From: Lama glama
Taxonomy: Eukaryota
Reading direction: 5' to 3'
DNA length: 64,000 nt
Assembly (NCBI GenBank): GCA_028534125.1
Contig: CM052816.1
Location: forward strand, 101,432,001-101,496,000
Positions 920-8,573 of the stretch are shown here, in pieces (position 1 is the stretch's first letter; the number at the start of each line of letters is the position of its first letter). A model generated the notes under the pieces. It had not been told where the DNA came from, ran no database searches, and was given only the letters and a program-made list of their open reading frames with translations. The translations under genes were made by a program, and so were the position numbers.

Positions 920-1115
920 AACATCCGGGCTCTCATGTGCACCGAGAAGACCAAGGGCTTCTGCCAGCTGGTGGTGTCATCCAGCCTGCGGGACGGCATG
1001 TCCCACCTGATCCAGTCAGCCGGCCTGGGGGCCCTGAAGCACAACACGGTGCTCATGGCCTGGCCCCAGTCCTGGAAGCGGGAGGACAGCCCCTTCTCCT
1101 GGAAGAACTTTGTCG
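920..1115 (+). CDS. SLC12A7: SLC12A7 coding exon (about exon 18)
   Basis: ccccag acceptor, gtgggt donor; 196 nt; NIRALMCTEKTKGFCQLVVSSSLRDGMSHLIQSAGLGALKHNTVLMAWPQSWKREDSPFSWKNFV. Confidence 0.96.
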
Positions 1116-2840: not shown

Positions 2841-3832
2841 GTGCGTGTCTGGTTCGTCGCACAGGTGGTCGTCCCGGAGCCTTCGACAAAAGGCTGGCCT
2901 GCCTTTTTCCAGACCCCACGTGACCATGGGGACTGGGATCATTGAGGTCACTGTGAGCCCTTCACCTCCACCTGGTTTGTGAAAAGCTGGCGATGCAGCT
3001 TCTGCTCCACCTCACCTCCCCACTCAGCTCACGTCATGCCCTCCTTGCCACCCAGCCCGGGCTCAGGGGCTCTGCGGCCCTGGGCTCACACGTGAGGTCC
3101 ACACAGAGCCGGCGTCCACCCGGCCATCCTGCTTACGCACAGCCCCCCGGTCTGGAGCCATCTTTTACTGAGCACCACGGCCCCCTCTCCCATGACACCC
3201 CAGTCCCTCCAGTCCCCAAGCCAGCAGCCACACGAGTCCCTCAGGGCCACCTCCTTGCCCCTCTCCCAGCTCCCTTCCACCTCACACGTCACCACCTGAG
3301 AGACCTCACTCTGTCCATCCCCACGGCCTCCCCGACTCCCTCTGGCTGCCGGTCAGCGCTGTCTTCGCCCGCAGCTTCCCAGGGTGCCTGCGTGCTGCTG
3401 CGGCTCCCCCCACCCCAAAACTCTGCAGCTCTTATTGCCCCTCCCCGGGGCCTGGGCTCCCTGGCGGTCTCTGCACTGCAGATGAGTCAGTGGGTGGACA
3501 GGTGGCTGGAAGGCTGAGGGGAGGGTGGACGGGCAGGCGGGTGAGCGGGTCGGGGTGGAGCCCACGCGTCCACGTGGAGCAGCATCGGGTAGAGTCTTGG
3601 GTGTCGTGCCTCCTGCAACGTGGAGGCCAGGGTGCTTTCCTGGGCCTTCAGAGCTGGGGCAGGAGGAGGCAGGAGGAAGCCCGAGTTTGGTCTGGACGCC
3701 CGTGGGGCTGGGAGGGCCAATCCAGGTGTCCCCGGGGCTGTGGGGCCGCCAGCCTCTCTGCCCACTCGCTCCTCCCTGGGGGTTGGTACCTGGCATCACA
3801 GTGAGACTGGCGCTGCCTTGCCCTCCCGCCAG

Positions 3833-4011
3833 GCGCAGCTTATCCACGACAGGCACACCGCGTCCCACTCTGCGGCGGCCGCCAGGACCCAGGCCCCATC
3901 CACACCGGACAGAGTGCAGATGACCTGGACGAAGGAGAAGCTGATTGCCGAGAAGCATCGGAACAAGGATGCTGCTGCGTCCGGGTTCAAGGACCTCTTC
4001 AGCCTGAAGCC
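3833..4011 (+). CDS. SLC12A7: SLC12A7 coding exon (about exon 22), contains the second inhibitory Thr site (QMTWT)
   Basis: cgccag acceptor, gtgagt donor; 179 nt; AQLIHDRHTASHSAAAARTQAPSTPDRVQMTWTKEKLIAEKHRNKDAAASGFKDLFSLK(P); this KCC4-specific segment separates it from KCC1-3. Confidence 0.95.
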
Positions 4012-4474
4012 GTGAGTGTCAGCCCTGTTCTGACCCACAGTGGGGACAGGCCCCTTCGCTGCCCCACGGTCTCCTTTCAGGCCAGTTTGCAGGGAAGCGG
4101 GCGGCAGTGGGTGGCGAGGTGGCAGACAGTGTTCCGGGGGCTTTTGCAGCACCTGGAGGTCGGGGCTGCCCCCTGGGCCGGACTCCCCGCTCTGACCCTC
4201 CAGGCTGCCCATCAGGCTGGCCCATCCGCCTGCCGGGGCTCCGCCCATGGCGTTGAGCTGGGAGCCCAGTGGGCGTGTGGCTGGGCCTGAGGAGGGTCCC
4301 GGGTGGGAGAGTCAGGACGGCATCTCCCGGGTCTTCGGCGTAGCCCGAGTTGTCAGAAGGGCCTGGGGGGCTCTCTGGGCCGAGGGGACAGACGCCCTGG
4401 AGGAGGAGCACAGTCAGCGGGGGCGTCGTGTTTGCTCGGGAAGTAACGTGCATTCTGTCTTCTCTTCCGCATAG

Positions 4475-4489
4475 AGAGTGGGGAAACCT
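4475..4489 (+). CDS. SLC12A7: Candidate alternative 15-nt microexon of SLC12A7 adding EWGNL
   Basis: ttctgtcttctcttccgcatag | AGAGTGGGGAAACCT | gtaagt; frame-preserving; gives [15 protein letters not shown], matching KCC2 [14 protein letters not shown]. Confidence 0.85.
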
Positions 4490-7194
4490 GTAAGTCCTCC
4501 CAGTCCTGGGACCTCATAGACTTGGTTGCCTGGCATGCGCTGCACGCACTGCCCCTCGCGACCCGTGCGTGCACGTCAGAGTGTGTGCACGGCCCTGTGT
4601 GTGTGTGTGCAGGGCCCCGTGTGTGGATGTGCCCGTGAGCACACATGTGTGCAGTCCTGTGCATGCACGGCCCCGTGTGCGCGTGTTCCTTCTCCGTGCC
4701 TGGCCTCGTGTGCGCGTCCGTGTGTCCGTGCTCAGCCCTGCACTGCTTGACTTTGAGGAACTTCCTGTTTAACTCACTCCCTCGCCCGGAGTGGCTCGGG
4801 GCACATACCCGACATTCCTTCTCTGAACAGCGCCTGCGGACGAGGTCTGGGGAGGGTTGGTCCTGAGCGGGCTCCAGAGCGGAGGGCGAGTGTTCTGGTA
4901 GCTGTCAGTTTGATTCACCCACATTCCTCGGGGTCCCGGGGTCCAGATGCACCCAGTCTCGGCTGCGTGGGGACAGCTTTTCCTTCTGTCTCCGCAGCGC
5001 CCAGTGCCTTTTTGCCCTGTAGGAAGCTGCCACGTTTGATCTCATCAGAAGGGATGTGTGTGAATCCTCTTTTGGGGCTGGCCCTGGGGGTTAGGGCCAG
5101 AGATCCAGGGCCTGGAGGGCTGCTGTCTGTCTGTCCATCCGCCCCAGCTCCCCTGTGACTTCCGGGCTATCTTCCCTCCCGGGGTGCCCAGCGGAGCCTC
5201 ATGACTCGGTGGCCAGACTTCCTGTTTCAGCCCCTAGACCCGAGCAGCTCACGCCCCAGGGGCCGCAGGAGTGTGGGTCCCTCGAAGGAGCCCCTGGGGC
5301 GAGTGCACAGGACTCCGTGCTGCCTGCTCTGTTTTTTCATAAACATAAAGTGACCTCCAGATGAAGCATTTGAGTAAGAACGCACAACAAGCCCATAGTG
5401 CAGCAGTAGGTGTCCCCTCCAACTCCCCGTCGAAGGGGCTGCGAGCGGCAGGCCTGGCCCGAGTGCAGCCAGCTGCCACTGTCCCGGGCCTGCGGGAAGC
5501 GGGCAGGAGAGCCAGTCTGGTCTGCCGCGGGGGTTGGGCTGCGGGAAGCTCCCGGAAGGTGGGAGGTTAGCCCACAGGTGACCCCATGGCGGGCACACCG
5601 TGGCTGGCCCCGGGGTGTGTGGTCGTCTGCTGTCAGCAGCCAGGGTCCAGAATCCCGCCCTGCCCGCACGCCGTCCATGGGCCTCCCCCGCCCTCCCCAA
5701 CCCTGGGCAGCCCACCAGCCCGACCGCAGGTCCAGCCTCAGAGAACCTGGCTGGGGAAGCGCTTCTCCACCAGACTCAGCATGTGATGACGCGTTTCCCC
5801 GTTTGGTGGCTTCACGGCTGGCTGTCGGGTAACCAGTGCAAGTGTCTGTTACCTTCTAGACACGTGAGGGCCTCCCGGGCCTCTCTGGCCTCCATGGGCC
5901 CACAGTCCTGGAACCGCGGGTATGTCCAGGCCTGGCCCTTGATTTTAAGATTATATGTGTTGTCAGACTCTTAACCCCAAGGCCCTTTAATATCACAGAC
6001 ACGTTTCTAGAATTGCTGTTGTGTCCCCAAACACACCGATAATAGGGATCCATCCAGGCAACTAATTCTCGGTTCTCGGAACCAAAGGCCCCTGGCTGTG
6101 CCGAGAACAGAGACCCAGCCTGTAATTTTATCAGATGAAACTGGAGCGAGAAAACCAAGGGTTCCATTTCCCCGTTTTCTCCTGGTAATTGGCGGTTGTA
6201 ATTGGATTTATTTGGCTTAAAGTTTGAGCTGATCAAAGGCTGTGGCCCAGGCTCCCGTCCTGCGGGCCTTTCCCGACCATCACGTGGCGGCCTCGTCTGT
6301 CTGTCTGTCTGTCTGCCCAGCCGCCCGCCCCTCTTGTGTCCTGGGCATGGTGAGCTCCTTCCAGCTGCAGCCCCCACACCGGTCCCCCGCTCTGCCGCAC
6401 GTGGCCCCAGCACCGGCAGCTGTGCAGAGGGAGGTGCAGGTGCAGGGGCTTGGGTCCTCCCAGTCGGGGTTTGCTGTGTACTTCCCGGGGTGCAGCTCAT
6501 TGAGGGGCCGATGCAGAGGAGGAGGGCTTGCTGGCGGGCACAGGGTAGCAGCGTCCCCAGTCTTGCGTCCCCGAGAAGCCTCCCTGGGAGGCTGGCTGCC
6601 CAGAGCACCGTGAGAGGCATCAGTGTGCAGCAGGCTGTGGGGTCAGGGCAGTGGGCAAGGACGTGAGGCACAGGATCTGGTCACCGGTGTGGGAGCGGTT
6701 GCTGTCGGCCAGGAGCAGCAGCGTCCGGGCAGGCCACGAGCCGGGGCGGGCCTCGCGGTGGCCACATACTTGGCCAGTGTCCCCAGCTCTGTTAGAGGGG
6801 CTCGGGCCTCAGGCACTGGTGGTGGGCTGGGCCCTCCTTCCTCACCCACTGGGCTAGTGGCCGCAGGTGGTGCTCACTCCGGCAGCAGGTTCCTCATGGG
6901 GCAGCATTTAAGGACGGGCTGGCCGCGGGGCAGGGGTCTCGACGGAGACGCCTCTCAACCTGGAAACGGGCTCGCTGTGTCGTCCGAGGTTCCGCTTCCG
7001 CCCACAGGAGTGGCCTCCGGCTGTTGTCTCTGCCCCACGTGGCATCGCGTCCTGTGGCTTCTCCAGGTGGCGGGTCTGACCTGTCTCCACCTGCCCTTTC
7101 TGATGGGAGCCAAGTGGGCAAGTTGGGGCTCAGACACAGCCTGGTGCCCAGGACTGCATATTGGAGGTGCCGTGTGACTGTCTCCCTCTCACAG

Positions 7195-7328
7195 GAACCA
7201 GTCCAACGTCCGGAGGATGCACACGGCTGTGAAGCTCAATGGTGTCATCCTCGACAAGTCCCAGGATGCCCAGCTGGTCCTGCTCAACATGCCGGGGCCC
7301 CCCAAAAACCGGCAGGGGGACGAGAACT
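7195..7328 (+). CDS. SLC12A7: SLC12A7 penultimate coding exon
   Basis: ctctcacag acceptor; 134 nt; [44 protein letters not shown]; followed by U12 donor GTATCCTTT. Confidence 0.96.
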
Positions 7329-8573
7329 GTATCCTTTCCCAGATGCTGCCCTTGCTGAGGTGGGGGACAGCCGCCATGTGGCGGGAGGGCCCCTCACCCC
7401 GCTGCTGCTCAGGGGAGGCGCCTGGGGCTGGGGTTGGGAGCTGTGGGGCCCTTAGCGTGGGATGTGGGTGACCTGAGGTGCCCGGACCAGAGCTGTATCA
7501 CGGGGGCCGTGTGGGGCTGTGGGCCAGCGAGCGCAGAGGCTGTGAGCAGACCCAGTTCCTGTCGTCTGCCTGGTCCCCACATTTGAGCTATTGATGGCCA
7601 GGGAAGCTGGGCTTGGGGAGTCTCAGAAATCGCCCCTCACTGACTCAGCGTGAGCGCGGGGCCGAGGAGACAGTGTAGACTCGTGGAGGTGAGGAGATAG
7701 AAGACGTGCTTGGTGCTCTGGGTGACAGAGGCCTCCGTGGAGAGCAGGCTGACACCTGGGGAATTCAGGTGATGAGTGGGGTGAACGTGGGCACAGAAAC
7801 CATGTCACTGACCCCAGCCTTCCTGCCTCGGCTCTGGGCTCCAGGCTCTTGCCTTCCCAGCTCCTGTCCCGGCCTCTTCCCAGTCATCTGGGGGACGGGG
7901 CAGAGCCTAGGGGCCCAGTCCACGAGGTTCTGCCAGTAGCTCCGCTCTGAGCCCTTCCCAGCACCAAGTGCCCCCAACTTGTGGAACCCCGTCAGCTGCT
8001 GCGTGGAGCAAGGCTGCCAGGCCTGACCTTGGGGGTCACAGGTCCGCCCCACCCGGGGCCACCCAGGGGGCGTGCAGCCTGGTCATCCTCTGGGTTCAGC
8101 CCCACCCCACCCTGGGGAGCAGCAGGCAGGAAGCTGTAAGGAGGCCAGCAGCTTGGTCCTCGGGCTTTAAGCCTCAGGAGGACCACAAGCCCAGGGATCC
8201 ATGCCTCCTTGGAGCCAGGACTTCCGGTCAGTCTGGGTGTCCTGGTGGTGGACGTGTCTGTTGCATCCTTTCCCTTGGATCTGTGCCCAGAGCCCCTGGG
8301 CGAGGACAGGGGTCCCTCCAGGTTCCTGGTCAGGCAGCTGCAGGTGTAGGCTGACCGCAGCCCTAGCTGAGGTCTCTGTTGGGCGGGGTCAGCACTCCTC
8401 TTCCCCTCGCACAGTCCCTCCCTCCCTCTCCGGGCCTGCCGCCCCCGTCCTCCACCTCTTTCTCAAACCGATCCTGACTGGACACAGGACCGGGGTGAGT
8501 AAAGCTGTCCCCTTCACACTTCTGGCTACTTGCACGGTTGGGCCAGCTGTGTCCTTAACTCAGCGCACCGCAG
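7329..8573 (+). other. SLC12A7: U12-type (minor spliceosome) GT-AG intron, last intron of SLC12A7
   Basis: 5' splice site GTATCCTTT; branch site TCCTTAAC at 8552-8559 about 15 nt before CAG (8571-8573); no polypyrimidine tract. Confidence 0.93.

Follow-up and report, generated by a model that had tools for sequence, protein, structure and literature searches.

The window analysed here is a 64,000-nucleotide (nt) stretch of the Lama glama genome (assembly GCA_028534125.1, contig CM052816.1, positions 101,432,001 to 101,496,000), which starts within the camelid SLC12A7 (KCC4) gene. An earlier note on this DNA had proposed that an intron of this gene hides a 15-nt microexon adding the residues EWGNL to KCC4. 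We find that this exon, at 4475-4489 of the window (features lie on the + strand unless stated), is real and ancient, being kept from sharks to mammals, and that it is the camelid orthologue of an already known and catalogued KCC4 microexon. Moreover, it is the paralogue of the exon numbered 24 or 25 of KCC2. With some reserve, we consider it probable that the exon is a conserved KCC4 cassette used at a low level in several tissues, likely under the influence of RBFOX/CELF and QKI proteins and with no need of SRRM4.

The exons flanking the microexon are near letter-perfect against camel and alpaca KCC4 models. The upstream constitutive exon (3833-4011) holds the QMTWT codons (3917-3931, with Thr980 at 3923-3925) and ends in phase 2 before a GTGAGT donor; this donor, at 4011, is in use in RNA contigs of a relative whose sequence is about 95% alike. 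The downstream constitutive exon (7195-7328) opens with NQSNVRRMH, where helix alpha7 of the C-terminal domain begins. Its top matches in PDB are the KCC4 chains 7D99 and 6UKN, and the camel models carry the Pfam SLC12 family. Between the two, a TAG acceptor (4472-4474) closes a pyrimidine tract (4452-4474, 84% C/T over the 19 nt scored), preceded by a TGC at 4449-4451, 26 nt from the exon, and by a putative branch point, GTAAC (4443-4447), with its A at -30/-29 and 29 nt free of AG up to the acceptor. The consensus donor GTAAGT follows directly (4490-4495). Joining 4011 to 4475 and 4489 to 7195 keeps an open frame in phase 2/2 and reads ...LSLKP-EWGNL-NQSNV, and skipping the 15 nt gives ...LSLKP-NQSNV; with this length and its canonical AG and GT borders, the element falls within the class of alternative cassette microexons (3-27 nt). 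Each motif that the earlier note had described (GTAAC 4443, TGC 4449, TAG, GTAAGT, GCATG 4533 and TGCATG 4660) is present, and the frame-keeping exon adding EWGNL is upheld by the spliced translation and by the conserved insert. The + strand of the window contains five GTAAGT, and only this one ends a cassette of the form YAG-(3n<=30 nt)-GTAAGT; the - strand contains six, with one weaker cassette of the same pattern. In addition, a degenerate pattern of acceptor, EW(G/E)xL and donor has a single match in the 2.35-Gb genome, at the KCC4 microexon, and the control matches numbered 0. We therefore judge that the exon is not a product of chance.

Conservation was followed in a set of 267 proteins, gathered by homology searching in two rounds and by a cluster look-up; the second round was seeded with the insert, so that the counts are not frequencies. 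A five-residue insert stands at the microexon position in 118 of these proteins (93 EWGNL, 14 EWENL, 7 EWGSL, 3 EWGHL and 1 EWESL), 108 skip it and 41 show neither pattern. The last group consists mainly of fragments running from an intron into one exon, and six of its members hold the insert with divergent or different sequence behind it. Among the named KCC4 models, carriers include skates, sharks, ray-finned fish, coelacanth, lizards, turtle, birds, echidna, marsupials and placentals, for example the dromedary (KAB1280835.1). Included and skipped forms occur as pairs within Camelus bactrianus (XP_074211731.1 and XP_074211734.1) and human (XP_054184637.1 and NP_006589.2), and proteins encoded by short intron-free assembly contigs carry the insert as well, such as P0005 (395 aa, from a 1,304-base contig) and P0109. 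E, W and L never change across the 58 included rows of alignment A2, and the adjacent upstream linker is variable (28-66% at five positions). The acceptor and the GTAAGT donor are retained in fish and mammals, and the identical donor hexamer follows the exon in five host-derived loci recovered by a scan of metagenome contigs (L001-L005) and in the KCC2 gene of the same genome. Gene, length, position and the EWGNL residues of the human and mouse SLC12A7 microexon all match the llama exon, whose place in a KCC4 host between ...KP and (N/D)QSNV is that of the human event. The upstream intron is short in both llama (463 nt) and mouse (about 610 nt), and no substantive difference from the human and mouse microexon was seen.

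The exon is not hidden, as the earlier note had supposed. It is present in RefSeq models and has VastDB identifiers in human (HsaEX0058620, chr5:1056582-1056596) and in mouse (MmuEX0042595, chr13:73810694-73810708). Hartmann and Nothwang (2015) described an 'exon 24' in KCC2, KCC4 and chicken KCC1 (PMC4301019), and Li et al. (2015) listed the 15-nt SLC12A7 exon among 310 micro-exons that were novel at the time (PMC4317164). Kursan et al. (2017) named mouse KCC4 exon 27 as the homologue of the KCC2 exon; the seven cloned mouse KCC4 cDNAs that they listed were without it, and they called its function undetermined (PMC5431760). In the open-access text searched, no study devoted to the KCC4 microexon and no functional test of the insert in KCC4 or KCC2 was found. 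The exon may be unannotated in this species; since it is already catalogued, the present finding adds at most a one-species correction of the annotation.

The earlier note had also named a KCC2 counterpart, EWENL, at the same position, and this proved correct. EWGNL aligns with EWENL in the PDB chains 6M23, 7D8Z and 9RNJ, and the KCC2 locus of the same genome (L016) holds a twin exon at the same position, in the same phase and with the same GTAAGT donor. This exon, number 24 of SLC12A5 (exon 25 in the KCC2a numbering), also has 15 nt and has four of five residues in common with that of KCC4. The KCC1 (L014) and KCC3 (L015) loci of the same genome hold no twin. Three genome matches to an EWENL pattern lay on contigs other than those of the KCC paralogues and were set aside as presumed chance matches. 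The two twins differ in their use: brain includes the KCC2 exon fully, and its class is Neural, whereas the KCC4 exon is mostly skipped and belongs to a generic alternative class. Beta cells and adrenal medulla, unlike brain, leave the KCC2 twin out, the skipped form being KCC2a-S25 (PMC5431760). They also differ in the 250 nt downstream, where KCC2 has no GCATG, no GCACG and one TGTG, against two, four and 17 in KCC4.

Inclusion data come from human and mouse. The percent spliced in (PSI) is 14.4 in normal human prostate versus 3.9 in tumour and 7.8 in normal uterus versus 1.9 in tumour (PMC7935315 S3 Data), and these are the only two of nine tumour/normal tissues for which the exon is listed. 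SLC12A7 mRNA falls from 12.2 to 2.6 during the progenitor-to-neuron transition (PMC7935315). In E14.5 mouse cortex, Hayakawa-Yano and Yano (2019) reported an inclusion of 0.17 in controls versus 0.40 after conditional knockout of Qk, with a false discovery rate of 8.9e-4 from two replicates (PMC6429586 Table S2); the coordinates given there describe a 15-nt exon 609 nt past the upstream exon and match MmuEX0042595. Since some inclusion does take place in neural tissue, the regulation by tissue proposed in the earlier note stands, but the neural specificity does not. The coexistence of included and skipped forms is documented by models from camel, human and other species, by assembly proteins and by the human and mouse PSI values; for the llama itself the evidence is the anatomy of the DNA. 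The RNA runs labelled as the species of the window were libraries of targeted or amplicon type, and the comparison used four contig runs of the relative, aligned within the downstream exon only as far as 7250. Two of the four contain a joint, in both cases the skip joint 4011^7195, and the other two contain intron only; inclusion in this species is accordingly inferred from its orthologues. In two of the runs most or all of the intron 4012-7194 is covered, at a depth of 20-25 versus 30-94 for the skip joint; either this intron is spliced slowly or the libraries contained DNA.

The intron downstream of the microexon is rich in candidate regulatory motifs. Those attributed to RBFOX, CELF, QKI, RBPMS and MBNL are used here in their generally accepted sense, and the meanings of UGC and ACUAAC follow PMC8797185 and PMC6429586, respectively. 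A GCATG of RBFOX type lies at 4533-4537, 44 nt downstream, and is unchanged in the contigs of the relative among the changes listed. It is followed by a UG/GC-rich tract (4542-4724) with 17 TGTG and four GCACG (4542, 4571, 4587 and 4665), a candidate CELF/RBFOX enhancer, within which a TGCATG occurs at 4660-4665 (+171). The 250 nt past the donor contain two GCATG, four GCACG and 17 TGTG, counts that are reached by 0 of 200 overlapping windows from the other introns of the gene. The counts of TGTG and GCACG are reached in 0.8% and 0.4%, respectively, of 255 tiles of the whole window, the tract itself included. These counts are not independent, the tract being one alternating purine-pyrimidine repeat. 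Motifs of RBPMS (tandem CAC), MBNL (YGCY), NOVA, PTB and QKI showed no downstream enrichment; 53% of the intron windows reach the count of tandem CAC and 30% that of YGCY. A fish locus that is KCC4-like by its flanking exons (L004) lacks an upstream TGC but carries two downstream TGCATG, at +27 and +33, and the three KCC2-like loci (L001, L003 and L005) have TGC at -5 to -13 and a downstream intron without GCATG. The fold of 4490-4745 is not special (z = -1.41 versus shuffles). In a predicted local structure at 4492-4523, AAGUC of the donor pairs with GACUU (~4519-4523) around a CCCAG/CUGGG hairpin, and this pairing could damp the use of the perfect donor. The relative has no substitution in 4454-4515 among the 40 of 142 rows listed; chance accounts for this with a probability of ~0.07 at ~4% divergence, and it was not counted.

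In the protein, EWGNL occupies residues 1010-1014. The earlier note had placed the insert close to the QMTWT phosphosite, and this closeness amounts to a distance of 30 residues downstream of Thr980. KCC4 with T926A/T980A is fully active in isotonic medium, and Thr980 is regulatory (PMC3814743); KCC2 maps do not resolve the beta8-alpha7 fragment, on which the phosphosites lie (PMC7732191). In the weak AlphaFold model built from 72 KCC4 rows, the insert is part of a segment of low confidence that immediately precedes helix 404-424, a long helix starting at QSNV, and both solved KCC4 chains are without the insert. A modulating role for a peptide at the end of the regulatory linker may be inferred. 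The ISO segment, to which KCC2 owes its basal activity, comes from the exon before this one (PMC4301019), which makes it less likely that EWGNL by itself would render KCC4 constitutive.

Taken together, these observations are consistent with a microexon for which skipping predominates and which several human and mouse tissues include in part. Inclusion would be promoted by RBFOX/CELF-type proteins, likely bound at the downstream GCAUG, GCACG and UG tract, and opposed by QKI, directly or not. EWGNL, lying where the flexible phospho-regulatory linker ends and just ahead of helix alpha7, would not act on ion transport as such but would tune dimer contacts or the regulation that depends on WNK-SPAK. 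The RBFOX-type layout described in the earlier note holds as far as GCATG 4533, TGCATG 4660 and the UG tract are present and enriched, but the relative lacks TGCATG 4660.

Several points weigh against this reading. C4662T and A4663G in four of four runs of the relative turn TGCATG 4660 into TGTGTG. L002, which has an EWGN-type exon and whose gene is unconfirmed with no flanking exon in view, lacks GCATG within 250 nt downstream, and the fish comparison amounts to one KCC4-like and three KCC2-like loci, two of which are near-identical. No row for this exon under RBFOX or CELF knockdown was found in the supplements searched; those of PMC7821500 (8 files), PMC12064062 (1 file) and PMC6613909 (7 files) hold no Slc12a7 row, and PMC4053824 concerns the Slc12a7 first exons and not the KCC4 microexon. 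As for QKI, inclusion rises on its loss, as it would for a QKI-repressed exon, but neither CLIP (crosslinking and immunoprecipitation) signal nor ACUAAY was found upstream of or on the exon. For this event, PMC6429586 has no entry in its Qki CLIP columns, and the window has no ACTAAY downstream and only GTAAC upstream. The QKI effect may therefore be indirect, through early neuronal differentiation, and this may favour an exon of neuronal type. No inclusion was seen in the four RNA contig runs of the relative, although such contigs drop rare forms and cannot demonstrate its absence; the sole alpaca model among eight cluster members (XP_072814996.1) skips the exon, and most of the 267 protein records are predicted models. 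Finally, the AlphaFold predictions, with a mean predicted local distance difference test score of 40 (one sequence) or 44 (72 KCC4 rows), are too weak for a claim on the structure of the insert.

It is unlikely, in our estimate, that the exon belongs chiefly to smooth or heart muscle, under a programme of RBPMS, RBFOX2 and MBNL, with the fall in tumours reflecting diluted muscle cells. Prostate and uterus are rich in smooth muscle, and the downstream UG and GCAUG motifs would suit muscle activators. Both tissues are, moreover, the only ones listed (PMC7935315). However, neither tandem CAC nor YGCY is enriched downstream, the exon is also included in embryonic cortex (PMC6429586), and the seven supplementary files of the RBPMS paper (PMC6613909) are among those with no Slc12a7 row.

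That this is a canonical neural microexon which SRRM3/SRRM4 activate by way of the upstream UGC, as the earlier note had proposed, appears improbable. The KCC4 exon does resemble the neural microexons of the SRRM3/4 (eMIC) programme in its size (<28 nt), frame-keeping, deep conservation and upstream UGC at -26, and also has a strong donor and the 29-nt zone free of AG. In addition, it is included in embryonic cortex, more so after removal of the progenitor factor QKI (PMC6429586), and the KCC2 counterpart, which has the class Neural, is retained in brain but left out in beta cells and adrenal medulla (PMC5431760). However, SLC12A7 is absent from the 314 SRRM4-induced HEK293 targets that Head et al. 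(2021) list with their genes (PMC7935315 S4 Data), and the exon is not among the 145 brain-specific micro-exons of Li et al. (PMC4317164). Torres-Mendez et al. (2022) put the mouse Slc12a7 exon in the class 'ASE', and thus in neither the Neural nor the eMIC-dependent one, and even the 'Neural' class of the Slc12a5 exon is defined as not eMIC-regulated (PMC8797185); the human event id is not in that table. Absence from a target list could be explained by low read coverage, and the dependence on SRRM3/4, which was not found, was sought by look-up in these lists. Moreover, inclusion is not neural-enriched with skipping elsewhere, the PSI being 14 in prostate, 8 in uterus and 17 in embryonic cortex. 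As for the UGC, it is distant from the exon, and a TGC within -30 to -4 is found at six of the eight constitutive acceptors of this gene, so that TGC 4449 is not diagnostic of SRRM4 control; it recurs at -23 and -17 in L002 and is missing in the fish orthologue L004.

It is very unlikely that the exon is a leftover of the KCC2/KCC4 gene duplication, leakily spliced and encoding five residues without effect: inclusion is low where data exist (8-17%), cloned mouse KCC4 cDNAs (PMC5431760) and the solved KCC4 chains lack the insert, KCC1 and KCC3 of the same genome manage without the exon and no functional test was found in open-access text, but E, W and L stay constant from sharks to primates beside a linker that varies, both splice sites are retained in fish and mammals, and inclusion responds to the loss of QKI (PMC6429586).

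Beyond the conserved, low-level KCC4 cassette that we favour, a bolder proposal may be made, to which we give little credence. The KCC2 and KCC4 exons would be twins that predate sharks but were rewired, KCC2 depending on upstream neural signals and KCC4 on downstream RBFOX/UG elements versus QKI, and the insert would act as a regulatory switch. KCC4 with the insert would then be KCC2-like, either active without swelling or harder to silence through Thr980, in a cell type of high inclusion, and KCC2-S25 would be KCC4-like. If the insert alters basal activity, K-Cl transport would be controlled at the level of splicing in kidney, inner ear, muscle and tumour cells, and the reciprocal KCC2-S25 form would be explained. 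The KCC2/KCC4 pair also offers a neat test of how the splicing code changes in duplicated microexons. The remaining interest lies in the function of a peptide whose E, W and L are constant from sharks to humans, at the end of the linker that holds the WNK-SPAK sites.

Other splice features were noted in the gene. The intron that bears the microexon may hold further rare splice choices: the downstream partner exon in the mouse VastDB row differs from that in the Quantas row, and marmot and langur models diverge after EWGNL (P0139, P0174 and P0178). At 4998-5018 of the same intron, a second strong acceptor (CAG, 84% pyrimidine) is followed 21 nt on by GTAGGA, a weak donor, and the peptide of this pair is found in 0 of the 267 proteins. 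In the fish KCC2-like locus L003 (~923-1054, reverse strand), the exon is intact and the next exon divergent (NQIDVRRMH versus NQSNVRRMH). The intron 2841-3832 is the place of 'exon 22' in KCC2 and in some non-placental KCC4s, the legend and text of the source being in conflict on which KCC4s retain it (PMC4301019). No remnant of this exon was recognised by eye in the three forward frames of the intron, and an RNA contig of the relative joins the flanking exons directly (loose end 3831). Finally, the last KCC4 intron (7329-8573) begins at 7329 with the donor GTATCCTTT and carries TCCTTAAC at 8552-8559, ahead of its CAG. By the consensus of these sites it looks like a U12 (minor-spliceosome) intron. 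GTATCC is found at the equivalent position in the loci of KCC1, KCC2 and KCC3 in the same genome and in four fish loci, and the U12-like intron is therefore conserved and probably already known.

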